Origin: Catajapyx aquilonaris
Lineage: Eukaryota
Length of the DNA stretch: 22,509 nucleotides
Reading direction: 5' to 3'
Assembly: GCA_000934665.2 (NCBI GenBank)
Contig: KZ538320.1
Span: forward strand, 62,001-84,509
Shown here piece after piece: positions 1 to 21,441 of the stretch (its first letter is position 1; every line of letters begins with the position of its first letter). Below the pieces are notes generated by a model that searched no databases, was not told the DNA's origin, and saw only the letters and a program-made list of their open reading frames with translations. The position numbers were made by a program, and so were the translations under genes.

Positions 1-326
1 GCTTTGATGTCGATCCCTCTTTAGACCCTACTCCGGTTGTGATTGGCTGCTTCTGGTGGTGTCCTGCTGCAAGTGTCCTCCATTTTGGAATAAAGAGTGT
101 GACGTGTTGTGGAGTGTGGTGTAAGTGGTGTTGGTGTGTTGGTGAGGGCGAGGGTGAGGTGACAACGGTGATGCGAGGTGCGGTGGGCGCCCGGGTGACG
201 AATGCGGAGGTGAGGCTCCGGCGGCGGGCTTGCCTACTACTCCCCCCGATAAGGAAGAGAGCAAACGCACCGCTGCATCGCGTCACCCTTCGCAACACTG
301 CCAACCCACTTGTCGTCCCTGCAGAC

Positions 327-386
327 ATGGCCATGTATTACTACGCCAGCAGACTCAATGCCTCCGCGCAGGCACTCTCCAGGAAG
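327..386 (+). CDS. Probable first/early coding exon (MAMYYYASRLNASAQALSRK); tentatively resembles the N-terminus of insect EF-hand calcium-binding protein E63-1 (Eip63F-1-like)
   Basis: ATG at 327 in good context (agacATGg), then exactly 20 codons ending at a strong donor AAG|GTAAGA (386/387, phase 0). A possible acceptor cccacttgtcgtccctgcag| ends at 324. The E63-1 resemblance (MxMY[FY]xASR) is from memory only and unverified; no EF-hand exon is seen in the window. Confidence 0.5.
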
Positions 387-1273
387 GTAAGACTGACCCT
401 AGACACGTGTGGCAACCTGAACATAACTCTGTCCTTCTCTGTGCATCTGTCCTGTCCAGGGAAGCTCAGATTGCGCTGAGAATCGCAGGAAAAGTTTATT
501 GGAGGTTCAGTGTTGCGTGACTGAACTCGGGGATTGTCGATGGTTATCTCACCATCGATTGATCATGATAAAGGCGGTCCCCTGAACACACCAATTCTTC
601 ATTCGACCTTTCATGATTGGAGCTGATTGGCAGCCTTGATTGGGCCTTGGCTCTCTGGCCATCTTGCAAAGCTGAAATTTCCCGGTGTGGAGCCTTTTAT
701 CTTTGCTATCACCTGTCCATTGATAGACTTCGGTTATTGAGCATCCACCCACATACGATAAAATGTGGTAGTCTTATCCCCCTAAGCGAATCTAAGCGTA
801 TAACCTTTATTATAATACCTTACATTCCTGTTTTTCATTTTAACGATAATAATTTTCATATAACGAAGGTTAAGGATTCCATATAGCCTGTCACGACCTG
901 ACCTAATATTAGGTGCGCAAAAACTGGCCTTCAAGTAAAATAATACCATTAGAAAACTACTAATTACGTAGACAATAAGTGCGAACAATAAGTATTGAGT
1001 GAAATAATCATTCAAAATTTTAAATACAAATGTACGTACATAAATGTCATTGCTCTAATGAACATAAGAATAGTGATAAATAACAATTTTTAAATTAGTG
1101 AACCCAATATGATAAGCAAGTAGTAACTTAACCTCAATATACAAAGCATAGCTGAGGAACTAATAACCGCAAGATATACGATATATCTTAGGAAATATTT
1201 CGAATTTTACTTTCACGCCATAAAATGCAATACATAAATTTATGATCATTATTGTAAAATAACGTGTAAAAGG

Positions 1274-1308
1274 AATAAATAAATAAATAAATACATTTAT
1301 AAATAAAT
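1274..1308. repeat. (AAAT)n microsatellite, possibly the decayed 3' tail of a retroelement
   Basis: aataaataaataaataaatacatttataaataaata read directly; no recognisable element body next to it. Confidence 0.6.
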
Positions 1309-2694
1309 ATTACGTAGCGAACTGGTTATATGAGTAACATATACAGTTACTGTTGACACTATTTAAGTCACTTCCTCTTTTACAAGGTGTGCAAAAACCG
1401 AAGTGTATCCTTATCCGTCATGGGGAAGAGGCGGGTTGGAACAGGGCCACCAGGACATTAAACCCTCATCCTCACCCATACCTCCCTCACCTCTCCCAAT
1501 CTCTGATTCGGCAGACAAAACCTGGCCTAACATTATAATCGGGTGTTTGGGTGTTGTTAGGCTTTCACGACGGTTTCATAGGTCGTATATCCGGGGGATT
1601 TGCAACGAGCTTGGCCCAACGACTTGGTCTCCTCTAAACCTCCCCTCCCGTGGATATAACCCGAACCCCAACACATAAGCTTCCACGGGGTTTTTGTCCT
1701 CTGCCACCCCCTCTACACTCTCCACTCGCAAAAAAATTGCATACTCGAGCCGAAAAAGCTTGGCAAGGGCTTAGTCAGTGTGAATTTTTGACGGGAAAAA
1801 ATTCTGCAATCTTCGATGGTTGATCCGCATGTGCTCGTAGAGTAGGAAAGTTTCGGTGCTCGTAATTCCCGAATGTGCCGAAACAGGACTGAAACAAAAG
1901 GGGGGGCAGGTTAGAAAGGGGGTTGGAAAATGGCCTCCAATTCTGCGAACAATGCGAGCTGGAATTATAGCAATTTTGCACCCGCACAATACAGTGGGTG
2001 GTGGGGGAGGGAGGCAGTTTTGCACAGAGGGAGGCTGGCATGATGGTGAGGGAGGGAAGAGCGTTTTCCGACCTGCTGCAAGTCGCCTCACGGTTGAGAT
2101 CACTTGTACAAACTTTGCTGGAGGGAACAGGAAAATGGGAGTTTTTTTAAATAAAAAAAAGAGGTTGCAGAAAGAAAGAGAGGAAGAAGGCGCTATGCAA
2201 ATGGGAAAGGGAAGCTATTCTTGGATGTAGCCAACCGGCTGCGGAGATAGAGAAAATGGCCAGGATTCTTTGACCTTTTCATTGCACCAGACAGGACCAG
2301 GGATTGGATTGCGGGAAAAGTCTTACAAAACGCTGTCACTTGCTATTACGAACTCTTTGTGTTTAAGGAGCCGACTTTTGAAAGGCAGACTGTACAAACG
2401 TGTCCCATTCTTGCATTTTGTCACGTTGTCAAGCACTTCTCACACCGATTGGACGATGTTATTCAATAATGTGTCAACCCACAAGAATATCAAATATTGA
2501 TGAACATAATATACCAAAGGATCGTACTTCATTCAGTTAAAAGAAAGCTGGCGAAATCTGCATACTTTTGCCATAAATGACCGAATTAATTTCACTGGTC
2601 AAAGCCCCTTTTCTCAAAATTGTTCTTATGTGGGTTGACTCATTATTGCATAACACCATCCAATTGCGTCTATGGCAAACAGTATGTATTATCA

Positions 2695-2802
2695 GTCCAA
2701 CAAGAATTGTCGCAGCGGCAGCGCACGAACTACAATCTACGAGCACAGGTATACGAGAGACTGTAGTTCGTGCGCTGCCGCTTGCGACAATTCTTGTTGG
2801 AC
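2695..2802. mobile_element. Hairpin/foldback MITE-like element (~108 bp)
   Basis: GTCCAACAAGAATTGTCGCAGCGGCAGCGCACGAACTACAATCT (2695-2738) is the near-perfect reverse complement of 2758-2802, with a loop of about 19 nt. Superfamily and TSD not clear. Confidence 0.7.
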
Positions 2803-2810
2803 ACCAGGTA

Positions 2811-2941
2811 CAGCGCTGGGCATTAATGGTGTTGCACTTGTGGCGCCATGATACGTTGACGGCAGAAGAGAGAATCGAAGCTCTTCTTCAGCCGTCGAAT
2901 CACGGCGCCACCAGTACAATACCAATTAATTCCTAGTACTG
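2811..2941. mobile_element. Tc1/mariner-like hairpin MITE (~131 bp) flanked by TA
   Basis: TA|CAGCGCTGGGCATTAATGGTGTTGCACTTGTGGCGCC ... GGCGCCACCAGTACAATACCAATTAATTCCTAGTACTG|TA. The arms are imperfect reverse complements along the whole length; CAG...CTG ends with TA flanks. Confidence 0.65.
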
Positions 2942-5195
2942 TACCTCTTGGTATAAGCTCACCATCACATTTGGCTATGCTTGAAGGCAAAGGTAACGTC
3001 GCAGCCGTGTAAACCGCCATGTTTGTATTAACTGGCGCCATGGGGAACAAACTGGATTACATCGGAACAAAAACATGGCTAAAAATGTCCTCCGGTTTTC
3101 CTGTCAGCTGTTTCAGCTGTCGGTTTTCATCTCCCTCTTTCCCTCCATTTTGGGCTAAAGGCACCTTTTACGGCCCCGTCATCTGTTCGCAGGCAGGCAG
3201 GGCTCCAGCCGTAATTCCATCCGGATGGTGACGTCCACCACCATTCTCTCCACTCAAAATTATTGATGCGTGCAACTGTACCCATCCTTGTTGTTCACTC
3301 TGATGCTCCTCCAAATGGCCACAACCCCGGAATCAAAATGGCGTCTATCTCCGGGTGGAATCCATCTTTTTTATTTTTATGAGGTTTGCTTTGCGTTGCT
3401 GGGGTCTTGGTGATTTACTTTCCACTCCGGAACCGCCGAGGCTGGATTGTGCAAGCAAATCTCATGAGCATTAGGCGGATGAATATGGAGCGATTGTGAC
3501 TGGACCAATCCGAGAGGCACGCACTACTTGAGAGTGGTGGAGGATGAGGAGGACAGGAGGGGGTGCAATCCATTAGGTTATGCCGAGTTTATTTGCATGG
3601 GATGTACTCTGGGTGCGTCCCATGCTTGCACTTAGGAGGTGCCTGGTTCCTGCAAAATGATGCCGTCCATTAAGTGGATGTGGGCATGAATTTTGGGACG
3701 GATCAACATGGCCGGATTCTGCGCAGGCGCCAGTACAATTGGGAGATGGAATCCACAGATTTTTGGTTGAAATCAAATCGACTTGTGTGAACAAAGCTTC
3801 CCATGAATGAAAGCTTAATGAACTTCAAGACAATCCGGATTTTTGTTCAGGTTGCCTACAAAGGTTGTTTGTACACACTGTAGTTGAACCGGTCGTTAAC
3901 GTCATAATCATAAATAACCGAGAAAATCACTTTATATCGTAACATAACCGCCAATATTGCAGGCTAGAGGCATCATAGTATTACAGTAGTTATTTGAGTA
4001 CATTATGTGTAACTATGTGTGGAATGAAAACATATTGGTGTGTTGACTACACTTGATCGACAGGGTAGTCATCGATTGGTTTATTTCGCGTTCAGGTCAA
4101 TTAATTACAACCCGGTCGTTACCTGCTTTTGTCGCACGCATACGTGAACGGAACCCTGTACCAAACACATGTGAAATTAATTAATTTGAAGATAAAGCGA
4201 GTACGTATGTACGAAACAATTTTAGGAATTTATTTGAGTACACCGCCTGCCTACACTGACCAGGTCGAGAATACTTCGCATGAGGCTCAACTGGATTTAA
4301 CCAAAAGACATGCTCCAAAAATGTCCTGGAACCACTCCACTCCATGTAATCCAACTCCTCCCACTTCACATGGAGAGAGCCAGCCTCCGAATAAAGGACA
4401 CTTCGGTTCCAGGGGGCTTATGTTCCTCCCGTGCACCTGCACACCCGAAAGGAAGAAAAAAAGATTGGTCCAAAAGTTGGCCCGGGTTTTGCCCCGGCTT
4501 TCAAGTTGTGGGGGGGTGGGGGACAAGCAGGAGAAGGTTTTCGGGGATTCCCCGATATAGAATTAAGCTTGTGAAGGGCTTAGGGTTGGTGGGCCAGGGA
4601 AGGCACCAAGATTGAAACTGGAATGGGATTAGCAGGGCATTGAGGCAGTTGGCCTTCCTGCCTGCAAATACTGGTTGGGGTGAAGGGGGGTGACTGTAAT
4701 AATCCAACGGGGGAGTGGACACACTCCACTCCCCCAGGTTCCTTCAATTAGGGGGGCAGATGAGTCCGGACTGCTCTGCGGGTGGGTCCCACAATTTCGG
4801 GGCACGTAGTTGATTAATGGCCCCTCTCTTGCCCGCTAATGGCGGCCCACGAGGGGTACAGAGGGAGGCGAAGGTGCTCTGGATTCCTGCAGGTGGCGCC
4901 ACCTAGGCCTGGAATAATAAAACGTACTACAGCTCGGAATGCTCAAAAAGATGAGGAACACTTAGTGACTTAGAGATGAATTTTTGGCTACGCTTTCACT
5001 TCGAGAGTCGCCGCCCTTTTTCCTAGTTTCCTAGTCTTGTGTCTGCTGAAATATAGGCGTGTATCCGCTGAAGGATGGCATGTATCCGCCAGGGAATGGG
5101 ATAGGTTGGTGCAGCGTACAGTAGGCATACCCCTATATGGCCATGTTCCTGCCAAATTAGGTCAGCCAATAGGAAAGTCCTTCCGATTTTTTTTA

Positions 5196-5470
5196 CGGGC
5201 GCAACCGAGTGCGCACCACAGTTTTGCGCAGTGTGCACGGTTGGCATTATCAATGATAGTTGGTAAGCTGTATATATAGTGGGTTTATTTCCAACGCCAC
5301 GCTTAGGAGAAACAAAATGGCCTACTTTTGCGACGTTGCCAAAGCCATGGAACGATCATCAGGTGCTACGGGTGTGAATAATTTTTTGCCCCCCTGGGGA
5401 GTTACTCTGGCAACATTGTTGTCAGAACAATGGAATTACGCGATAGTGGACGCGCACTCGGTTTCGCTCG
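5196..5470 (+). mobile_element. MITE family A, full-length copy 1
   Basis: TIRs CGGGCGCAACCGAGTGCGCACC / GGACGCGCACTCGGTTTCGCTCG, with TA on both sides (5194-5195, 5471-5472). Internal motifs (TGCACGGTTGGCATTATCAATGATAG, TTATTTCCAACGC, CAAAATGGCC, GTTGTCAGAACAATG) recur in three other copies in the window. Confidence 0.85.
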
Positions 5471-5474
5471 TATA

Positions 5475-5795
5475 CATGGTGTTTCAACTTTTTTGTGCGA
5501 ACAGTTATCGTAAAATTGCACGTAGCTGCTACTTTGTAAGCAGTGACTTGCAACCGGTGATTTGTCGGAGGAATGGGGAATGGGGAAAAAGAGGGTCACA
5601 CATCCCATGGCATGTGTGACCCTCTTTTTTCCAGGCAACTCGACCCTCAATTTTCAGCGGGCAGCACATATGCCAACTTCAACCTACGATTCGCAGGGAA
5701 TATTCCCCAGTTTGCAAATCACTGCTTACAAAGTAGCAGCTACGGTCAATTTTCCGATACCGTAACTGCCCGGACAAAAAAGTTGAAACACCCTG
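5475..5795. mobile_element. Tc1/mariner-type MITE (family C) with ~85-bp TIRs, TA-flanked
   Basis: TA|CATGGTGTTTCAACTTTTTTGT...GTAGCTGCTACTTTGTAAGCAGTGACTTGCAA versus TTGCAAATCACTGCTTACAAAGTAGCAGCTAC...ACAAAAAAGTTGAAACACCCTG|TA. CAGGGTG-type ends plus TA flanks; internal palindrome at 5586-5629. Confidence 0.85.
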
Positions 5796-7028
5796 TATAT
5801 TGTATAGATGACAAACTACTGGGGAAAACAAGTGTTGACCAGTTGAGACAGACGTGCATTATCGCATCACACTCGACTTGGGATAATTTTGAATTTTTAA
5901 TAGCGATAGATGTGGCGACAGCTTCCGACCGGATAGTTCCGGATTTTTTATTTTTCACCCCATTTCCGATGCCGTTACCTTTCCAGCCAACGAGGTACAA
6001 GTAATGGCGAGTTTCCAAGCAGCTGATTGGGTGCGGTTGGATCAAACACACCGCTGCGGCCTGTACCCGTCAGGTGTTTCATCAGGTCCCAAAATGCAAC
6101 GGCCTGGTTGTCATTTGCACCGGATAATCACCAAGTGACGTCACACGTCCCCCGGATAACCCGGGCTGCCTCATTTCCCATGGAAAGCGAGTCGTCCCCA
6201 ATTAAATGATTAACTTTAATATGACGCGTTGCGGAAATTACGAGTCCGCCCCGTGCTGCCCGCATGCGAATATATTTTATTGCGGTAATGCAGTAATATT
6301 TTCGGTAATGCCCGGCGTCATGGGGGGAAACACAGGCGATTTATGCTCCGCGTAAATTATGGCCCCGGAAAATCAGCATACCATTTTCATTAGGGCCATT
6401 ACAAGCGCTGCCCCCTTGGCGGATTTTCCGTAATCATATCCGTGACTTGTTTATTACACCGGACTATATAGTTTGTGTCCCCTTTTGGCGTTCAAGTCAC
6501 CTCTTGGCCCGGGAAAAAAACGGGGTCTTTTGGTGCGAATGAATAGCCATGTTAACCCTTTTGGATACAGGTTGTTAAATGAGGCATTGTGTCGCCAGAG
6601 GGGGCCGCCTTTTATGGATTATTATTGCGGAGTAATTAGTCCCTCTGGCTTATATACGCGGCGGATGTTATTTGCGTGCGGTGGTATCCGGAGCATCCGT
6701 ATGATGTGGGGGTAGGGGGGTGTGTATACCATTCCTCCTTCCCCTCCCCTTTGATATGCTCCTCAGGACTTTGGACGAGATCAAGGCGCCGGAGGATAAT
6801 TGAGTGGAAGATCAAGTTTGCACTCGTTCCTCACTCGACAAGCAATCACGATGGGATTACATGCACTCCCTTGCGTTTAACGCTGGGTATAAACCAATCG
6901 GGAGCAGACGGGGGAATCCGGACTGACCTCCTGGGTCGAGAGGTCGTCAATTAACAGACGGTTCAAGCCATAAACTAGGAGTCATTTCATAGTTAAATTG
7001 GCTGAGATGATTTTTTTAACGATCTCAA

Positions 7029-7185
7029 CCTGTAGCCTCTGAGGTTCGTTCCAGAACCTTAGCAACATACACTTCGGCCATTTTGCCCCCATCCCCAAGC
7101 GTAGCGTTGGAAATAAATGCACCGCACTATAGCCTACAGAGAGCTTACCAGCTATCATTGATAATGCCAACCGTGCACGATGCGC
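7029..7185 (-). mobile_element. MITE family A, truncated internal copy in reverse orientation
   Basis: The reverse complement reads GTGCACGGTTGGCATTATCAATGATAGCTGGTAAGCT...TTTATTTCCAACGCTACGCTTGGG...CAAAATGGCCGA...CTGGAACGAA, colinear with the copies at 5196 and 16207. TIRs are lost. Confidence 0.85.
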
Positions 7186-10100
7186 TCCTAAAAGAAATTA
7201 TAAGTTATATATACTTATGAGACGATAATTATGAAAGGTCCAAGATATGGGTGACATACCGTCAATTGGGATGAGATTGTGCCAGCGCATTTTTGGCCAA
7301 CAGTGCATTAGGTATAGGTTACTACATTGGGGGATGGTCAAGGTTGGCAATGACGAGTAAAATTCGCGGGAAGTACAACAAATGCGCTGGCACAATCTCA
7401 CCCCACCTGGCACAATCTCATCCCATATTTACAGTACGTTGTGACAATTCTGGCGTGAAAATCTGTGTTCTTTTTACCCGTGGAAATTGCAGTCCTTATA
7501 TTAATTTTGACACGCACTAAAAACCCGCGCTTGAAACGAGTGCATGACACCATCAGGTAAGTTGCGTTAACCAGTCCGTAATGGACTATGACACGAGTGT
7601 TGGCAGGGTTGGAAATAGCCGGCTCGCCACCAAATCCGCAGCGGGGGGAAAAAAAAGTTTTTGTCCAGATCCGGCGGGGGTTAAAAAACAACGGTGGAAA
7701 AAAAAAGAGCAGCAGCATCAGGCAGGCAACAAAATGGATCTGGGTGGGCTGCAAGTTGACCACTGGCTCTTGCGGTCATCCGCAATTCCCTGCACACTCG
7801 CTGATTTACCGCACGTGCTTTTCGGGGATGACATGTGGCCTGAGCCCCAACTGTCCTTTTTCATTTGCAGCACAACACACAAGTTGTCGCGTTTTGAGCT
7901 GCCTCTCACGCTTTTCCAGTCCAACCCACCCAACCACCCTCTCTCTTTTTTTTTGTATGTGTATGTGTGTGTGTCTGCTTGGCTGAGTCCGGCATTCAAC
8001 TCCCTGGATGACCGCACTCAATTAGCGAATCGCGTGCTCCAAATGTCATCCTTTTGGACATGTTCCTCGCTTCGAATTCAATGCCCATCGAGCACTTGCC
8101 CCAGGTTCGAACTTTTGTGCGCTAAATGATAACTTGTGTAGCCGGACCCTTTTTTTTTGGGGGGGGGGGGGGACTCTGATGTAAATCNGTCAAAGGGCGA
8201 AAGAGAGTAGTGTCCCCTCTCTGACCGGGAGCGGACAGACGGACACTCCGGGTTGCAAATGGGGGGCAGCCTGGTCCAAGTGCCAAAAAACCAGTAGATG
8301 CTTTTAGGAGAGGCAGGGGAATCTGAATATCAAGTCCATCCATTGCCAGATCACATCACGTAGAGCGGAACTGTTCAACTTAAAGATTTAATATACGGTA
8401 ATTATATCGAATATTTAATTATGTAGATATTTAAAATGGAATTACGATGAATGTAAAATAATTTAATTTGGCAGCGTGATATAAAATTTATTGAAAACGC
8501 GATCAAAACCGTCGACGGCCTGTGTGAATGGGCCTTAATAATACAAAGCTTATGTCGTATAAGTAACTCAATAAGGGTTTTACATGTATCAAAATTAACG
8601 CAATTAAACTTATACAAGAGTAACTATCAAAATGATGTCAAATCTGATGTGATTATGAATTCATATTAAATACTGCTTCATTTACACAAATAAAATCCTA
8701 TTAAAATAATTAAAATGCTTCGTATGAAATGAAATCAATGTCAATTTAGTATCTAAAATGATGCCATTAATTGATAATAATTTCCATTGCAATGAGTCAT
8801 TTACGTTACTTGTGTATACTTATTCGCATTGAAATATTAGTGCCGTACAGTAGGGCCTAATAAGTAATAGTATAATTTAAGCCACGAATTTAATTTTATT
8901 GCTATTAATATGGGTCAGCTCATCTACAGACAAAATGAAGTAAAAAAAAAATGATAAAGTAATAAATTGTCTTCAACCGTACACCAGCAGAATTCATAAT
9001 TATTTATACGTGAAACGAAATGATCAAACGAAATAGCGCGCCGACATCTTCAGTGCTGACGTGTAAATGTTTTTAAATTGCTCCCCCNTGTTTTTAAATT
9101 GCCCCCCCCCCCCCCCTAAAAAAAGGTGTGTGTCATAATCTCGGACCGTTTTCTGGTCCGAGTAGTTCAACACCGTATATACATATGCTTGACTTTCTGG
9201 CCTCCTTGCCAAGAATAGCAAGTTTCCACGCTCAGTTTTTGGCACCGCCCTTGGCTTTACAAACAGCCCTTAATAGCACTGCTTGCATATGCATTCCGAC
9301 TTTTTAAAAAAAACTTCTATACGCTTAAAAAAAAAATCTAGTCGCGAGCAGGCTAGCCTTTGGGCATGTGATAGAGCAATCAGCATGACGTGTTTTTATC
9401 CGGATGGAGCCAATTTCGCGGGTACTGTAGTGTATGTGTGCATAGAGCACTCGTTGAGGCGCAATTTATTTTTTTTGCGTGTAACTCATTGCAATTTGCC
9501 AGGTGAGGGTAGTTATCCTCTTTTTTTTGGGTACGGCGCCGGATATGACGGTCGTTTATTGGCAGGACTTGGGGGGACAGGAGTCCAATCCGGGGCCTGC
9601 GTCGCACTGTTAATGAGCTTCCTATTAGCCAAGGTTGCGATCAAGTGTGGAAAAGCGGAATGCTCATTGCGGTTTTTGCGCGTATGTCCAGCACATCCAC
9701 TTTACAACGGGCATAAAAAGAGAGACCCAAACAGCTGCAGGGTTTTAAAAATGTAAAATAAAAAAAATTGAGCGTATATGTCGCCAATTTTCATTTCGGG
9801 TCGTTACATTCGGATGGAACTGACCAAAAATGAGGTGCTTTAAAGGGTAATGTGAGGTAGATGTGGAGAGTACAGAGGAAGGTATAGTTGTTACTTGACA
9901 TGTAACTGGTGGTCATGCGATGCAAACAGTAGTCTTTGTTAGTACAACCCGTACCGTACTTAATTCTGGGTGACATCATTAACATTCGTACTAATAAAGT
10001 TAATTGTGACAGATTCGGATGTATTGGCACAGCCAAACCATAGGCGTTAATTTTAACTAATGCGAAGTGGCAGTAATGTGTACACATCCACCCATTTACA

Positions 10101-10231
10101 TGTGACAAATGCAAGTAATAAAGCATGCCGGTATTTATATTTGGTCAACTAATGTCAAGTGCTGACAGTTTGAATGCACACCGTATACGTGTCTGTATGA
10201 AATTTTTTTTTAAGAAAAATGTTTTTTTAGA

Positions 10232-10405
10232 CTTTTTATTATCGAAAAAAGTACATATTATATAACGGCTTTGTCCGCCCGTCTGTCTGTGGACAGGCAT
10301 CAGGGCCTAAACCGCAAGAGATGGCGACAAACTGATTTCGGATTCGTATTAAGCGTAACCAAAATATGTTTCATGGCCAACATCCGGTGACCGGCCACTT
10401 CCGGT
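10232..10405 (+). mobile_element. Possible DINE-1/Helentron-associated (HINE)-like remnant
   Basis: T-rich start followed by a short GTCY-type microsatellite (GTCCGCCCGTCTGTCTGT, 10273-10290) and a GC-rich CCGGT...ACTTCCGGT stretch near 10383-10405. The layout recalls insect DINE-1-like elements, but the subterminal inverted repeats are not resolved. Confidence 0.3.
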
Positions 10406-11337
10406 GTGTCCACAATGATCAAATCTGCAGGCAGGTACCAATATCACTTGGGTTCCTTCGCAACGGAAAATGAGACTGACAATCAATGCGATTGTTGTCC
10501 AATTAGAATCGCATCATGGCGTATCGCATCGGGTTTGTCAGCCCAATGAGAAAAAGTCTACTCAAATCACGGTCGTGTGATTTGCCAGTCTTGTTTTTAA
10601 AAAATGGCCCCTTTCGAAAATGTGGGTCTGAAGCTTGTATATTGACACGTCTAGTCTGTCCGAAACACTTTTTGACACAGCCTATAGTATGCGGACGTCC
10701 GCTTTTCGTGTAGAGCCGATATCTTCCATCTGACAAGAAACTGTGGAATGAGACAGGCCAATTTTTGAATGGGGCGCATTGGCCCAGTTGTCCAGCAAAG
10801 TTTCCGCCCCGGTGCTCTGCCCCGGATTCCACTCCCGAAACGCATTGCGGCAAAGCCTCTTGTGCCACACTCTGTAGGCCCTGCAGCACCCCTGGTTTTT
10901 TTTCCTCTTCTTTTTTGACCGGGGTTATATGCTCACGACCTCAGCACAGCATTCGTTTGGAATTGCCGGTATTTTTGGGGGGGGGTAGGGGGGAAGTTAC
11001 CACCCTCCCCGTTTCCAGCCCGTCTCCCGGATGGCATCCGGGGATATGCTCCGGAGCGGCGGCCATGCTGGTTTGCCCTGTGATTGAGAGCAATTTTTCA
11101 GGCAGCGCGATCCTCACATAGTTGCGCGGTATGGCCCTCTCTCTACCCCCAATTTTTTTTTGTGAACGATATATCTGGGCGTGTCGTTAATTAGAGCAGA
11201 AGCAGGCTTGCGGGGGAAAGATGGCTCGTTATTACCAGGGGGGAATATTGAACATGTGCTGCGACGTGTACAGGGCGTCGGTGGTATGTAACATATGCGG
11301 TTTTCCTATTCCACGGTTCAATTATGGTAATATAGAG

Positions 11338-11975
11338 GGCGCACCACAGTTCACGCAGCTTGCACGGTTGGCATTATCAAGGGATACAGTTGAATCCGGA
11401 TATAACAGACTTCAAGGAACATCGGAAAGAGGTCTGTTACAGCCAAATTCCCACTTTTGAACGAATGCTTTCCATGTGTCTATAATGCACACTACTGCAT
11501 GCTCATCATTGAACCTATCGTCAAAAATTCAAAACTAGCTCACCCGAAAATTGTGAAGGATTAAAAAACGCAATTTTCTTCTGCAATCTCCATGTTGCCA
11601 AATATACCAGAAAATATTATTTTGATCTTTCCGGTTAGTGTAAAGGAGCGCCTAGATCAGTAGCAGATGGGAAAATTAGCCCTGATCCTGTATACATTGC
11701 TTTTCTCGCGTGGAAAAGGAAGCCGGGTAATCGAAAACAGCATATTTTCCCACCGGGAGGCCAAGAAATGGTCTATTATAGCCGAAGTGATGTGAATATG
11801 AGTATGTTATATCAGGAGTTAAAAATACACAGGGCCGTAACCCGACCTTTCCAGTCTGTTATAGCCGAGGCTAACTGTAACTGGTAAGTTCTATATACCG
11901 TAGTGGGTGTATTGAGCTGTACTTATTTCCAACGCTAAACAAAATGGCTACTTTTGCTACGTTGCCAAAGCTCTA
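11338..11975 (+). mobile_element. MITE family A, degenerate copy split in two by a family B insertion
   Basis: 11338-11386 (GCGCACCACAGTTCACGCAGCTTGCACGGTTGGCATTATCAAGGGATA) resumes at 11880 (ACTGGTAAG...CTTATTTCCAACGCTAAACAAAATGGCTACTTTTGCTACGTTGCCAAAGC), colinear with copy 1. Confidence 0.85.
11387..11877 (+). mobile_element. pogo/Tigger-like MITE (family B), copy 1, TA target-site duplication
   Basis: TA|CAGTTGAATCCGGATATAAC ... GTTATAGCCGAGGCTAACTG|TA, with repeated subterminal GTTATA(G/A)CCGA motifs. The body is colinear with 20615-21441, and the duplicated TA corresponds to a single TA in intact family A copies. Confidence 0.85.
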
Positions 11976-14813
11976 GCCTGCTGATGAGAGGCAAGATTCT
12001 TCAAGTGACGGACATTTAGAGGTCAGCATCTGGCAGGCTGGCTTGCAGATCCGTCTCACAGGTTAACACAAGCGACCTTTTTATTATGTAGGTGGGCCAA
12101 ACTCTGACGTGTTGTGGGCATCCCTGAAATCCTAGTCCCGAGACGCATCACTCAGCCAATGAGATGCTCTCCCCCCCTTTTTTTGGCTGTGATCCTGCGA
12201 GCAGACTTGGGGAGTGGTGGAGGCCACCAACGCATCTAGTTTTCATGAGACTTACTCTAAGCTGCACTTTAAGCCCGAGTAACGGCACCCTAATCCCGTC
12301 TTATGTCCACTTTAGGACCAACAGGGTGGGACTTGGTTTTTTCCGCGCAACTTGGCGCGTTCGGGAGGCGGCCGCTGCTCCGATGCAATATTCAAGTCAG
12401 TCTGCGGCCGCTTTTTGCCAGCGGGGAATTTCATTACTGGACGCCACGGGAGGACAGACCGAAAAAAAAAAAATCCGACACTGCTACCAGGTGATGTCAC
12501 CTACAAATGAAGGCGTGGGATCAAAAAATGGGGGGGTGGAGAGAGAAGTGTCGCCATTTTTTTAAAAACAGAGGATTAAATGCCAGGGGTTTTGCAAACA
12601 GTGCGAACAGGTTGGATCAAAATCCGGTTCAAATCCATTTCGAATGAGAGAATTCTTTTTTGGCAGGAATATTTGTAATGCTCAAATCTGTTTGAGATTG
12701 AGATGTGAATATTGGCTTGGAAAAGCTAGTCGAATTCGATTTTTAAACTGTTATAAATGGTGTCAGTAATTGTCGTTATACCAAACATACTTGTCACAAT
12801 AGCCAAATTCACACGTTTTAAATGAATATTTCAGTTTATATTCACTGTACAGTCCATTCTGCTCAGATACATCACATTTGCGAAAGAAACTATTGGTTTG
12901 GGTGAATTATTCCAAAAAAAGAACTGCTCAATTATTGAAAGTAGCAAATGAGGCTTGTTTAAACCTGCCTGCGTCTATTATATGAGACGAAAGTCATTAA
13001 ATTTTGCAAATATTGTTAAACATTTTATTCGTCGTAAACGTTGCTTTTTAAACGGGTAATTGGTGTCAAAGTAATTTATAAACAGCACAACTCTAAAACT
13101 GCAATTACCTACCTATATGAGATCTACCCGTCTAATTGCACTTTTTGAAACAAATTGGCACGATTGTATCAACACCAGTCAAGTTTTAACACCCGATACT
13201 TCACTGTTGCTAAACGTTAGGTCAATATTGATCAGCAATGATATACTGTGCAGGCGGTTAAAGATTTACAGGCTTTTTGCCCGGATTGTATCGCGATTGG
13301 TAAAGTTTTAACCTGTTTTTATTAGTATAGTAGTAGGCAAATTGGTTGGTAAACACTTCATAACAAAGAAAATACATGTCGTTAAAACTGTACAGTGTAT
13401 ATAGTACATGCTGCAATAATCCATATGAATACTTTTGACTACTATATGTAACTGAAATATTTAAAAAAATATGCACGATGGATTATTCATTATGAGATAT
13501 TTTACCAATTTTTTCGTCTAGATGAAAACTGTCCATCAAAAAGTGCACGTGAAGTACTACGGCTCATTATGCATTGCCCAACTCAAATTCTACCAAAATG
13601 TGACTGATCCCTCTGAATTTCATGTCTTGATATGTTCAAATCGGAGCCACTCTCTATTCAAATTAAAATGTGAAGGCCAGGTTTAAACTAAGTTAAAACT
13701 ATAACACCGGTCCTTTTGAAACGCTAGAAAAAATGACCCAAGTGTATTGCTCACACTCCATGACAGTATTAACACTCAGGGTTCAGCCCAATTAGAACGA
13801 CACAGCTTAATTTCCATCCAGGCCGAACCAAGTCCAGACCTTTGTGACATCAAAGTTCAATAGCGCAGGTTCATATTCTCGTTTTTTTAAATAAAAAAAA
13901 GTAGGGCGAAATGTAAAGGTTTTTTGATCCCGCCCATTCAATAGGTCCAGACTAGTGGTAGCGGCGGAATGAGATTTTTTTCCCTCTCTATTTCGGATCT
14001 GGGTCTGTCCCGCACTCTTTTTCACCTTGGATTCCGGAATTCCTGTCGAGATGGATGACTGAAAAGAGTTGGGAGAAGGGACAAGTGGCGCCTAATTTGT
14101 GAAGCGACCCCCGGATATATTCCAGGGGACCCAATAATTCGGGCCAACTGGTCGGAAAAAGCTCACATGCAGGATCGATCATGAAGTCAGCCCCACTCGA
14201 TATTGCAAAAAAATGGAGTGCGAATTATTACTCCAGTTTGTGCAAAAATGACTGCAGATTGTTTGTGTACTATACCAGCAAAGGATTTTAAATATATGAA
14301 GTAAATATGTTGATTTTTTTTTGGTCTTTTTTGCGGGGGAGTGTGTGTTGGAGGTGTGTTGACCTCTGATTGGTCGATGACATGCACGTAATGCAGATCT
14401 GTCTTGCGGCGATGAAAAGTTGGGAGCTTGTGGGACGTGGGAGATAATTCCTGTTTGAGTCTGCTGCCAGCTGCAGGCCAGCACCGGTGTACACCCACCC
14501 ATCCACCCACTACGGTACACGAGAGAAGGGTGGGGGGTAGGGAGAGCAAGTTTGCGGCCTAATGGATGGCACAATGTAATAAATGATCCAAAATAGAAGT
14601 GTAATAGAATTTCGGAGCGCACCCACCCACCATCCACCCACCCATCATCCAACCCCTCTTCTCCCCTAGAGGGGGGTGGCGCCGTCTGCTGCACAGAATG
14701 GCTGAAAAATCACGTCATATTCGCAAAAAAATATATATGCCTTAAAAACATGTCTGGAATTGGGAGTGAGCGAAACGGGTGAATTTTTACAAGCAGGGAT
14801 AGCTACTGCTATT

Positions 14814-15189
14814 TTAAAAGTAGCAGCGATTTCATGTTACTCAAAAGTAGCAGCGATCGATATGTTGGTCAAGCGTAGCAGTGATCGATACGGTACTCAA
14901 AAATAGCAGCGATCGATATGTTGGTCAAAAGTAGCAGCGATCGATAAGGTACTCAAAAATAGCAGCGATCGATATGTTGGTCAAAAGTAGCAGCGATCGA
15001 TAAGGTACTCAAAAATAGCAGCGATCGATATGTTGGTCAAAAGTAGCAGCGATCGATAAGGTACTCAAAAGTAGCAGCGATCAATATGTTGGTCAAAAGT
15101 AGCATCGCTCGATATGTTGGTCAAAAGTAGCATCGCTCGATATGTTGGTCAAACGTAGCAGCGATTGATAAGTTACTAAAATAGCAGTG
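14814..15189. repeat. 28-bp minisatellite, ~13.5 units, with a 56-bp higher-order dimer
   Basis: Units start every 28 bp from 14841. TCAAAA(A/G)TAGCAGCGATCGATATGTTGG alternates with TCAAAAGTAGCAGCGATCGATAAGGTAC; 14897-15064 is three identical 56-bp dimers. Confidence 0.95.
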
Positions 15190-15277
15190 CCGTTTATTAA
15201 CTTGAATACTGTACTTACATCATTCCTTAAATGTTTCAATACATGTAATTAGCTAGTAATAAATATTGTAAACATAA

Positions 15278-15311
15278 TGACTAATTTTATCTTCTCTTTC
15301 TGTAGGTAAGT
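15278..15311 (+). promoter_or_regulatory. Candidate recursive splice site (ratchet point; 3' splice site fused directly to a 5' splice site)
   Basis: TGACTAAT branch-point motif (15278-15285), pyrimidine tract TTTATCTTCTCTTTCTG, then TAG|GTAAGT (AG 15304-15305, GTAAGT 15306-15311). No other AG lies between 15257 and 15303. Same strand as the exon at 327-386. Confidence 0.7.
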
Positions 15312-16206
15312 GCTGTGATGCTGTTCGTACGCCGATTGTACGGTAACGTGAATATTTTCTTTTTGGCAGCGTTGTATTTTACTGGTTGCGACGTTGCCTT
15401 TTTGCACTATTTTTTCTAGGTACGGTTACAGAGTTAGTTCAGATAGTTGCTGGATACTGCAACATGGGGGGGGGGGGGGGGGGGGGAAAAATNNGGGGGC
15501 AAAATTGCACCGGTGCAGCTCAGCACCAGACGAAATGGTAGCTCTCTGAAGATTATGAAATTTTGACCCTTGACTGGATTTTGACCTTGTTTTTTTATGT
15601 AAAGGCATTTTTGGATGGCTCAAAAGAGGCAAAGATTGAGTTTGTGCTTGCCTTCAAAGTAACATTTATATTTGACGGTGCGCGGACAGGCAGTGTCGAG
15701 ATTGATGCTTGCTTTGCACCGGAAGAGGGAGGGAGGGAGGGACCACCCACCCACCCATGGGATAGATACACCAAGCAAGCGAACGAGGCTCGGAATGGAA
15801 GAGGACAGCAGGAGATAAATTGACATACTTGCCACCCACCCCCGTTTGGCAATCCCAACACCCCTCTTTTTGCCTCCGTAATAAATTCTCACTTTGGAAA
15901 TTGCTCCTCGTCTGGTAGCTATATTAATATTGTAGGATCGGGGAGCGTCTCGGGGGATTACCTTCCCCCCTCGTCTTCCCCCTTCAACCCAGATCGAAGA
16001 CCCATCAATAACAACTGACGTGATCAGATTCGAAATGACTCGGACCACTCCAGAGAACACCCTGTCGTTTAAGCCAGCTTTATCCAGTCCATTTATTATT
16101 AAACAGTGATAATGGGCCAGCAAGCCAGGATTTTCTGTATTTGCTGGTTTGTGTCCTCACATACATGTACCCAACAATCTGCCGTGGAATAGGTGATTTT
16201 TTTTAA

Positions 16207-16442
16207 CGAGCGCAACCGAGTACGCACCACAGTTAGCGCAGCTTGCACGTTTGGCTTTGGCATTATAAATTATAGTGGGTGTACTGCACTGCACTTATTT
16301 CCAACGCTACGCTTGGGAGGGACAAAATGGCCGAGTTTGCGACGTTGTCAAGGCTCTGGAACGAAACTTAAAATAATTCTGGGAACAATGTTGTCAGAAC
16401 AATGAAACTGCGCGAGTATGGGTGCGCACTAGGTTGCGCTCG
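16207..16442 (+). mobile_element. MITE family A, full-length copy 2
   Basis: 22-bp TIRs CGAGCGCAACCGAGTACGCACC / GGTGCGCACTAGGTTGCGCTCG (2 mismatches), AT-rich flanks (ttttaa / tataaa), body colinear with 5196-5470. Confidence 0.85.
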
Positions 16443-16469
16443 TATAAAGAATTCATCTACATTCTACAG

Positions 16470-17145
16470 TATAGTCAGGGAGCATATACTACATAAGAGG
16501 CGCAAACATTCGATTCGCGCGTCTCGCTGTTTGGGCCGTTGCCTAGGCTGGCGGCCATTTTGAAACGGGGGCAACGCCAACGAGGTATAAATATGGTACA
16601 GGCAGGCCGTAAAGGTCCGCCATATTTGATGGTTTTGGTGGCCATGGCATTTCACGGCAAGAACACGCGCGAAAGGAGCTCATACGGCAAAAATATTCAA
16701 ATTCGCGCGTGTTCTTGCCGTGAAGTGCCATGGCCGCCAAAACCATCAAAGATGGCTGACCTTTACGGCCTGCCTGTACCCTATTTCTGCCGTCAGATGT
16801 GAGAGGACCGTGACTCATTATCCACTTCCCTTGCGGCGAGAAAAGAAAGCAAGTGTTACCGAAAGCATCCAAGATGTGGCGTTGGGGGAAGGGGGGAAAA
16901 GGAACGGCATCCCAACTCCACCTGTTGGGTGCTTTTGGTATACCACTACTTTTTTCTCGCCGCAAGGGGAAGTGGACATTGAGTTACGGTCTTCTCATAT
17001 CTGACGGCAGATTTATACCTCGTTGGGGTTGCCCCCGTTTCAAAATGGCCGGCAGCTTTGGAAACGGCCCCAAACAGAGAGACGAGGACATCAAAGGCGT
17101 CGACGGAAGTGTGCGCCTCTTATGTAGGATGTGCTCCCTGGTATA
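16470..17145. mobile_element. Long foldback element (family D), arms about 225 bp, left arm interrupted by an insertion
   Basis: 16470-16592 plus 16787-16886 form the imperfect reverse complement of 16911-17145 (e.g. CAGGGAGCATATACTACATAAGAGGCGCA versus TGCGCCTCTTATGTAGGATGTGCTCCCTG; GGCCATTTTGAAACGGGGGCAAC versus GTTGCCCCCGTTTCAAAATGGCC). Exact termini and TSD are uncertain. Confidence 0.85.
16593..16782. mobile_element. Hairpin MITE (~190 bp, ~81-bp arms) nested in foldback D
   Basis: GGTACAGGCAGGCCGTAAAGGTC...CACGGCAAGAACACGCGCGAA (to 16673) versus TTCGCGCGTGTTCTTGCCGTG...GACCTTTACGGCCTGCCTGTACC (from 16702). It is absent from D's right arm, which reads GGTATAAATCTGCCG across the site. 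Flanks AAAT/ATTT. Confidence 0.85.
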
Positions 17146-19543: not shown

Positions 19544-19834
19544 TACTCTCTAAAAAATAGAGTTAAAAAACTCAAGTTGGGTTCTTTTTAACTCTTTTAA
19601 ACCTTGAAAGTGGTCATTACCAAAAATGAGTTATAGTAACTCTTTCGCTGGAGTTAAAACAACTCTTTTAGTTCATTTCATCCTCCGAAAGAGTTATTCA
19701 TTAACTCTTTCGGAGGATGAAATGAACTAAAAGAGTTGTTTTAACTCCAGCAAAGAGTTATTATAACTCATTTTTGGTAATGACCACTTTCAAGGTTTAA
19801 AAGAGTTAATTTAACTCTTATTTTTTAGAGAGTA
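19544..19834. mobile_element. Near-perfect 291-bp palindromic foldback MITE, possibly CMC/EnSpm-type
   Basis: Ends TACTCTCTAAAAAATA / TATTTTTTAGAGAGTA. Inner arms 19588-19696 and 19702-19809 differ by one substitution and one 1-bp indel around a 5-nt loop. Built from repeated GAGTTA/TAACTC modules and flanked by GT on both sides (possible 2-bp TSD). Confidence 0.85.
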
Positions 19835-20614: not shown

Positions 20615-21441
20615 CAATTGAATTCGGATATAACAAGGGACTGCTGAAAAGGTCTGTTATAACCGAGGTATGTTATAGCCAAATTGCCACTTTTCAACGA
20701 ATACACATGCCTACAATGCCCACTGCTGCATGATGATTAATGAAACCATCCACAAAAATTCAAAACTAGCTTGCTCGGAAAATTTTGCAGGATCAGCCGT
20801 TTTCTTCTGCCATTTTTATGTTACAAAATATACCCAGAAAGATGCGGGGGAAAATCTGGGCTATCCTCGCGTGGGTATAAGGAAGCAAGGTAATCGAAAA
20901 CATCATATTTTCCCACCCAGAGGGCAATAAATGGTCTCTTATACCAGGGGTGAGGTCATATCAGGAGTAAAAAGACACAGGGGGGAGGCGGAGTGGTGCT
21001 GCGGTAACGTATGCGCCCACGGATGTTAAGGTCCCGGGTTCGATTCCAGCCCGGGGATACCCCCTTCATCTCGTGCAGAGTTCAGGGTCACCTCTGGCTT
21101 CGTCTCGGGTGGTATTTCCACAGACTAAACCACTCGGGGGAGTTCACTAAAAATGGCCACAGCGTCAGATGCACTGCACCTTGCACATCCCCTCCTGTCA
21201 TCCTGCCCGTGGGCCCGGGCTTTAATTAAATAGGCACCATGTACTGAACAACTCAAAATACAATAAAGGTCCATGCGATATACCCGGGAAGGGGTGAAAG
21301 CATTACCCACAATTTATTTAATTTATTATTTATTTATTTAAAAAGACACAGGGACTTGTGGTTGTGGAAGTATGCCAGGACTGGCTTTTCCAGTCTGTTA
21401 TAACCGAATGTCTGGTGTAGCCGAAGCTCCGGATTCAACTA
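20615..21441 (+). mobile_element. pogo/Tigger-like MITE (family B), copy 2, interrupted by a SINE
   Basis: TA|CAATTGAATTCGGATATAAC ... TCCGGATTCAACTA|TA. Shares GGTCTGTTA, GCCAAATT(G/C)CCACTTTT, CAAAAATTCAAAACTAGCT, GGTAATCGAAAACA, CATATTTTCCCACC and TTTCCAGTCTGTTATA with 11387-11877. Confidence 0.9.
20983..21338 (+). mobile_element. tRNA-derived SINE (~356 bp) with 15-bp target-site duplication
   Basis: A-box-like TGGTGCTGCGG (20994-21004), B box GGTTCGATTCC (21037-21047), 3' (ATTT/TTA)n tail (21311-21338), and a perfect direct repeat TAAAAAGACACAGGG at 20968-20982 and 21339-21353. The empty site TTAAAAATACACAGGG is present in family B copy 1 (11819-11834). Confidence 0.92.

Follow-up and report, generated by a model that had tools for sequence, protein, structure and literature searches.

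A candidate ratchet point for recursive splicing was identified on the + strand of the window (the whole stretch of DNA analyzed, 22,509 nucleotides), where the sequence TAG|GTAAGT at positions 15303-15311 joins an acceptor AG to a consensus donor with no gap between them. The sequence signals of such a site are present, adjoin one another, and are of good quality. Taken as a whole, the reading of this site as a ratchet point is plausible on these signals, and we consider it possible, though somewhat short of probable, that AG|GTAAGT at 15304-15311 works as a + strand ratchet point, whether or not a cryptic exon takes part.

Signals at the acceptor-donor junction

The candidate site is made up of the following elements.

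15257..15303, + strand: AG-free zone before the acceptor AG, 47 nt (nearest preceding AG at 15255-15256)
15278..15285, + strand: branch-point-like TGACTAAT (CTAAT), with the candidate branch A at 15284
15286..15303, + strand: pyrimidine tract, C or T at 16/18 positions, longest run 12
15304..15311, + strand: juxtaposed acceptor and donor AG|GTAAGT, junction 15305|15306; candidate ratchet point

An earlier note on this DNA had described a branch motif, a pyrimidine tract, a 47-nt AG-free zone, and TAG|GTAAGT, and each of these was found at the positions listed above; its statement that the perfect donor GTAAGT directly follows the acceptor AG was likewise borne out (AG at 15304-15305, GTAAGT at 15306-15311). 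The candidate branch A at 15284, assigned from the motif, precedes the junction by 22 nt (-22), a distance at the limit of the fly range. The 3' end of the tract has C at -6, T at -5, G at -4, and T at -3.

AG|GT sites on both strands of the window were scored (149 sites, of which 93 are + and 56 are -; 2 close to the ends of the - strand were dropped). The site at 15304 ranks first of the 149 on donor match and pyrimidine content, and it is the sole one that combines a 6/6 donor with a strong acceptor, namely 16/18 pyrimidines, a 47-nt AG-free zone, and CTRAY in the branch window. Elsewhere in the window, AGGTAAGT occurs at 7555 (+) and 18519 (-), where the acceptors are poor (9/18 and 6/18 pyrimidines, respectively) and have no branch motif. 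Among the 565 YAG trinucleotides on the + strand, only 21 are preceded by at least 14/18 pyrimidines (the site has 16/18); 10 of these also have an AG-free zone of at least 30 nt, and 3 have CTRAY in addition. A second combined acceptor-donor site on the + strand, at 9472-9508, is much weaker (CAG|GTGAGG, 11/18 pyrimidines, 42-nt AG-free zone).

In a first-order model of the window, the probability of GTAAGT after G is 2.3e-4, and analytically ~0.0023 chance sites are expected per strand, 0.0007 when the branch motif is included, and ~0.006 on both strands. With ~0.002 sites expected per strand of the window, the motif is not noise at the level of the window, and it is very unlikely that the full composite arose in this window by chance. 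At the same rate (~0.002 to 0.006 sites per 22.5-kb window), a genome of hundreds of Mb would, by our own arithmetic, hold tens of chance sites, and this one was picked after the window had been read. For these two reasons, chance has to be weighed as an explanation: TAG|GTAAGT could be a juxtaposition without function, in DNA that is intergenic or whose + strand is not the sense strand of any intron, or at a site that the spliceosome ignores. The rarity of a composite made of a branch motif, 16/18 pyrimidines, a 47-nt AG-free zone, and a perfect GTAAGT argues against this explanation. Together with the evidence on the upstream exon and on the base at -6 given below, we regard a juxtaposition without function as a substantial possibility that is nevertheless on the doubtful side.

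Upstream of the candidate site is a repeated element that could bear on its function.

14816-15187: tandem array, ~13 units of 28 nt each, higher-order period of 56 nt (88% match)

From the end of the array to the junction and its perfect donor there are 118 nt, and GATCGATA or a close variant of it is found in every copy, with 10 CGATA on the + strand in one orientation. We take the CGATA and GATCGATA motifs to resemble promoter or insulator motifs of the DRE/BEAF type. A 14-nt piece of the tandem unit had no match in a full-text literature search. The nearness of the array to a perfect donor and the single orientation of its motifs are points in favor of TAG|GTAAGT being the donor that ends a short alternative first exon, with a promoter in or just after the array and an incidental pyrimidine tract; so is TCATTC at 15220-15225, which we take to be initiator-like. 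However, the array has no exact TATCGATA, hexamers of the initiator type would turn up by chance about once per kb, and a first exon would account for neither the branch motif nor the tract nor the AG-free zone. We consider a first exon at this position very improbable.

The donor half of the site could also act by itself. GTAAGT pairs perfectly with the 5' end of U1, and it may be only an intronic U1 snRNP site that suppresses premature cleavage/polyadenylation or supports trans-splicing and is not spliced to. Drosophila mod(mdg4) is described as having an intronic U1-binding motif that is conserved and acts outside splicing, and in the window an AATAAA is present at 15258, 48 nt upstream. 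Such a role would, however, leave the adjoining strong acceptor unexplained, and the perfect GTAAGT sequences at 7557 and 11884 lack a strong acceptor, so a bare U1 site needs none. A role in U1 binding only is a slimmer prospect still than a first exon.

The putative upstream exon and the strand of the putative intron

The ratchet-point reading places the start of the intron near the left end of the window, at the following features.

325..386, + strand: putative upstream exon, with ATG at 327 and 20 codons (MAMYYYASRLNASAQALSRK), ending in phase 0 in AAG
387..392, + strand: donor GTAAGA of the putative exon (AAG|GTAAGA, exon end at 386)

Directly 5' of the putative exon is an acceptor-like cctgcag at 318-324 (CAG at 322-324). 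The donor at 387 has a score of 6.45, which places it in the top 6 among 1329 GT dinucleotides of the + strand; the score matrix is not species-specific, so this and all other donor scores are rough. The earlier note had placed a donor at 386 on the same strand, ~14.9 kb upstream of the candidate site, and this agrees with the AAG|GTAAGA found there (386 to 15306 is 14,920 nt); splicing from 386 to 15306 would remove the segment 387-15305, which is 14,919 nt long. Joining 386 to 15306 would, also as the note had proposed, give AAG|GTAAGT (...CCAGGAAG + GTAAGT), and this regenerated donor has a rough score of 8.09 vs 6.45 for the original one. The presence of a good donor on the same strand, at a typical distance, from which an optimal 5' splice site would be regenerated argues against a juxtaposition without function.

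The + strand intron status of 387-22509 is the weak link of the ratchet-point reading. It is putative, and its only premise is a 20-codon ATG frame between an acceptor-like CAG and a good donor. When the 40-residue frame 267-386 was compared with longer proteins, there was no match at E values up to 10. On the - strand, a 112-codon frame (2-337) is also open at the left end, running off the window, and it had no match to longer proteins at E values up to 1. Counts of AATAAA, ATTAAA, and donor-like or U1-type words in the window did not differ between the strands clearly enough to identify + as the sense strand. A putative first exon without a homologue in the protein search, a GC-rich left end that is open in several frames on both strands, and donor-like and poly(A)-signal motifs without clear strand asymmetry are each points in favor of a juxtaposition without function. 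The + strand of the window also has a steady excess of G over C, which was not taken as strand evidence.

Positions 1-700 of the window are GC-rich and promoter-like, with several frames open on both strands. This left end contains ATTGG (CCAAT on the - strand) at 42, 616, 626, and 639, GTCACACT on the - strand at 96, and GCCATCTTG at 658.

The content of the rest of the window was analyzed for genes and for noncoding RNAs. The Pfam scan covered the 34 frames of at least 100 residues among 68 listed stop-to-stop frames, the longest in the window being 193 codons, and it found 0 families in 34/34 frames. There is thus no coding signal in frames of at least 100 residues across 387-22509 by Pfam, which fits a long intron. 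A tRNA scan of the window found none, and Rfam gave no match near 15306, with only sub-threshold matches to miRNA families elsewhere in the window. Near-perfect palindromic hairpins at 2703-2797 and 19615-19783 gave sub-threshold Rfam matches to unrelated miRNA families on both strands; these hairpins look like inverted-repeat elements and not like members of those families. The window has a GC content of ~45% and a CpG observed/expected ratio of 0.84, and this ratio is unlike that of vertebrates and like that of many invertebrates.

The earlier note had raised the possibility that the motif belongs to a multicopy repeat. Inside the window, self-BLAST found no second copy of 15188-15500, a region that is single-copy there apart from homopolymer matches, and none of the short interspersed repeats of the window covers the candidate site. 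A search for inverted repeats across 13500-17000 found no transposon-marking arms flanking the site. In metagenome contigs, an exact 24-nt pattern across the site and an exact 27-nt pattern at the exon end each had 0 matches.

Several other repeats were observed in the window. An inverted repeat of 90 nt, 92% complementary with a 28-nt spacer, is present at 16584-16791, and dispersed two-copy repeats at 78-83% identity include the pairs 5406-5474 / 16378-16446 and 11477-11793 / 20708-20956. Paired homopolymer runs (T9 G14, C15 T A7, and G21 A5) are found at 8152-8188, 9088-9125, and 15467-15494; each pair is within ~30 nt of an N position (8188, 9088, and 15493-15494, respectively), and these runs probably reflect assembly uncertainty.

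The stretch downstream of the junction

According to Joseph et al. 2021 (PMC8605326), a short cryptic exon of ~50 nt is required at intronic ratchet points, and its downstream donor is usually weaker than the ratchet donor; the content of these exons is poorly conserved and usually out of frame. A stretch that could have this role adjoins the candidate site.

15306..15419, + strand: candidate cryptic recursive-splicing exon, with weak donors at 15343 and 15420

Within 130 nt downstream, the only donor-like GTs are ACG|GTAACG at 15343 (+37, for a 37-nt exon, rough score 1.10) and TAG|GTACGG at 15420 (+114, for a 114-nt exon, rough score 2.59), and both are weaker than the ratchet donor. Equal-sized stretches would hold donors that weak by chance in 30% of cases for the 15343 type and 13% for the 15420 type. 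From 15306 onward, in phase with the exon ending at 386, there are 37 codons and then TAG as the last codon. The two weak donors and the stop-terminated frame fit the picture of cryptic exons in flies, with which they agree without proving it.

Further acceptor-like sequence is present in the same stretch. One tract, ttttctttttggcag, is at 15355-15369, and cactattttttctag|GTACGG (15418-15425) is a second AG|GT, weak in its donor, with 15/18 pyrimidines and an AG-free zone of 48 nt; the acceptor-like tracts at 15369 and 15419 are both within 115 nt downstream of the candidate site.

The likeness to Drosophila cryptic recursive-splicing exons (Joseph et al. 2018, as summarized in PMC8605326) extends to the relative strength of the donors, since in those exons the donor is weaker than the ratchet donor, as it is for the 37- or 114-nt stretch here. 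Inclusion of the Drosophila exons disrupts the reading frame, and inclusion of the stretch after 15306 would do likewise. In size, the Drosophila exons are typically ~50 nt, whereas the stretch here would be 37 or 114 nt, with donors that are weak at the level of chance.

The same features were considered as those of a real exon. In this explanation, 15305 is the acceptor of an expressed exon (15306-15342 or 15306-15419) that begins with GTAAGT and serves as a recursive-splicing, poison, or UTR cassette. Evidence for it includes the donors at 15343 and 15420, the two additional acceptor-like tracts within 115 nt (at 15369 and 15419), and a frame, continuing in phase from the exon that ends at 386, that is open for 37 codons and meets its stop exactly at the TAG|GT at 15417-15420. 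Exons of this type are also known, with fewer than 50 expressed recursive-splicing exons in flies and many in mammals (PMC8605326).

Against an expressed exon, the 37-residue frame (15306-15416) had 0 matches among 1.84 billion protein representatives, and both downstream donors are weak. A 37-codon open frame is also not rare, with a probability of roughly 0.1 to 0.2 by our own arithmetic. Expressed recursive-splicing or cassette exons usually preserve the reading frame. Either form of the exon here would shift the frame or end translation, as Joseph et al. (PMC8605326) describe for cryptic exons that are skipped and not for expressed ones. Considering both sides, we regard an expressed exon at 15306 as improbable.

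Comparison with known recursive splicing and meaning of the site

Recursive splicing is best compared through the 197 ratchet points reported in flies by Duff et al. (bioRxiv 10.1101/006163), which are strongly conserved. Their host introns are 11.3-132.7 kb long, the median removed segment is 16.4 kb, and the branch points, usually A, are mostly at -36 to -21; recursive introns make up only 6% of the fly introns >11.3 kb in that work. Like Drosophila ratchet points (such as those of Ubx, kuz, and luna), the candidate has a strong acceptor in juxtaposition with a donor of the consensus GT(A/G)AGT, here GTAAGT, and a prominent pyrimidine tract. Its branch-like A at -22 falls within -36 to -21, its first segment of 14.9 kb is close to the median of 16.4 kb, and its intron would exceed 22 kb, compared with at least 11.3 kb for fly recursive introns. 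In Drosophila, a consensus donor is regenerated on ligation, and by its sequence the same would hold for the candidate.

The candidate differs from Drosophila ratchet points at -6, where they have T and it has C, and in being known from sequence alone. The earlier note had called the site a textbook ratchet point, a description that its C at -6 does not sustain, because Duff et al. (bioRxiv 10.1101/006163) found TT at -6/-5 in 196/197 fly sites. Pai et al. list 539 fly candidates, 243 of them at high confidence. In their S1 table, strings counted anywhere in the file over six -4/-3 contexts gave 285 with TT and 21 with CT, the high confidence flag is present in only 2/21 CT rows, and in part 1 of 11, the part inspected by eye, all rows have TT at -6/-5. 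By fly standards, the candidate thus resembles the ~1% of exceptions; the rule is one of flies and may not be that of the host. This departure from a near-invariant fly rule is a further point in favor of a juxtaposition without function.

Evidence from other animals bears on whether chance explains the site. In Shepard et al. 2009 (PMC2773006), Table 2 compares combined acceptor-donor sites on the sense and complementary strands of introns >50 kb. The values are 2.196 vs 0.101 in fly (ratio 21.7), 1.029 vs 0 in mosquito (ratio much greater than 10), 0.807 vs 0.101 in beetle (ratio 8.0), 0.540 vs 0.066 in sea urchin (ratio 8.2), and 0.484 vs 0.122 in bee (ratio 4.0); in the vertebrates of that table, the ratio is 0.9-1.5, which is no enrichment and would count against the ratchet-point reading if the genome were vertebrate-like. 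For the locust NPF1 gene, PMC8892266 describes a predicted site in a 230-kb intron, with indirect support from a U2AF65 pull-down. Like these invertebrate cases, the candidate is a combined acceptor-donor site predicted from its motifs, it is placed in a long non-coding stretch, and its genome is of non-vertebrate appearance; it differs from them in that PMC2773006 reports statistical enrichments and PMC8892266 a U2AF65 pull-down, whereas the candidate is a single site known from its sequence. Vertebrate recursive-splicing exons (Sibley et al. 2015, as cited in PMC8605326) likewise have a donor abutting the acceptor, and that donor competes with one farther downstream, as it would here. They differ from the candidate in being mostly expressed exons, with only nine intronic sites noted as fully suppressed, and the CpG ratio of 0.84 in the window is unlike that of vertebrates.

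These studies also bear on the statement of the earlier note that ratchet points are little characterized outside Drosophila and vertebrates. This holds for experimental work, and within the literature searched, direct demonstration outside Drosophila is scarce. It does not hold for computational work, since an enrichment was published in 2009 (PMC2773006) and the locust site has indirect support (PMC8892266).

The sense-strand excess in invertebrates, from 4-fold to more than 20-fold in PMC2773006, means that a match on the sense strand is more often selected than not, which argues against a juxtaposition without function. For the same reason, a working ratchet point is favored if the candidate is in a + strand intron, the enrichment in long invertebrate introns being 4- to 22-fold or more. 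If the host is an invertebrate in which such sites are used, and + is the sense strand of one of its long introns, the match is, by analogy with these animals, more likely to be selected than accidental. Our estimate for a working ratchet point is lowered because the intron status is putative and because the C at -6 is a heavy penalty if the fly rule applies.

In the proposed use of the candidate ratchet point, a pre-mRNA beginning with the exon that ends at 386, or farther upstream, would be transcribed through the window. U2AF and U2 would recognize the tract and the CTAAT branch site (15278-15303), and exon definition, probably with the weak donor at 15343 or 15420, would help the acceptor at 15305. 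The exon ending at 386 would then be ligated to 15306, and 387-15305 (14,919 nt) would leave as the first lariat. The new AAG|GTAAGT would outcompete the weaker downstream donors and hence be used next. In the second step, it would be spliced to the next acceptor, beyond the window, with removal of the remaining intron and the cryptic exon, and the mRNA would retain nothing from the ratchet region.

A more specific form of this proposal is that the site is a working ratchet point in a non-Drosophila invertebrate despite lacking T at -6, and that the tandem array 118 nt upstream might influence its recognition. The array could do so through, for example, chromatin state, polymerase pausing, or RNA-binding sites. 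We consider this specific form unlikely. If a site with C at -6 works, the acceptor rule for recursive sites would differ between lineages.

The mechanism of recursive splicing has been well described in work from 1998-2018. The phenomenon is therefore already well known, and what is new here is, at best, the C at -6 and a host that is possibly a non-model species. If the site is unused, it would indicate that chance can produce a near-perfect composite motif and that calls made from motifs only need support from RNA or conservation. If the site is used, it would add an intron to those known to be spliced recursively, possibly from a species without prior experimental proof of the process, and it would break the TT rule at -6/-5 of flies. 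Its use would also help annotation and the comparison of how long introns are handled across invertebrates.
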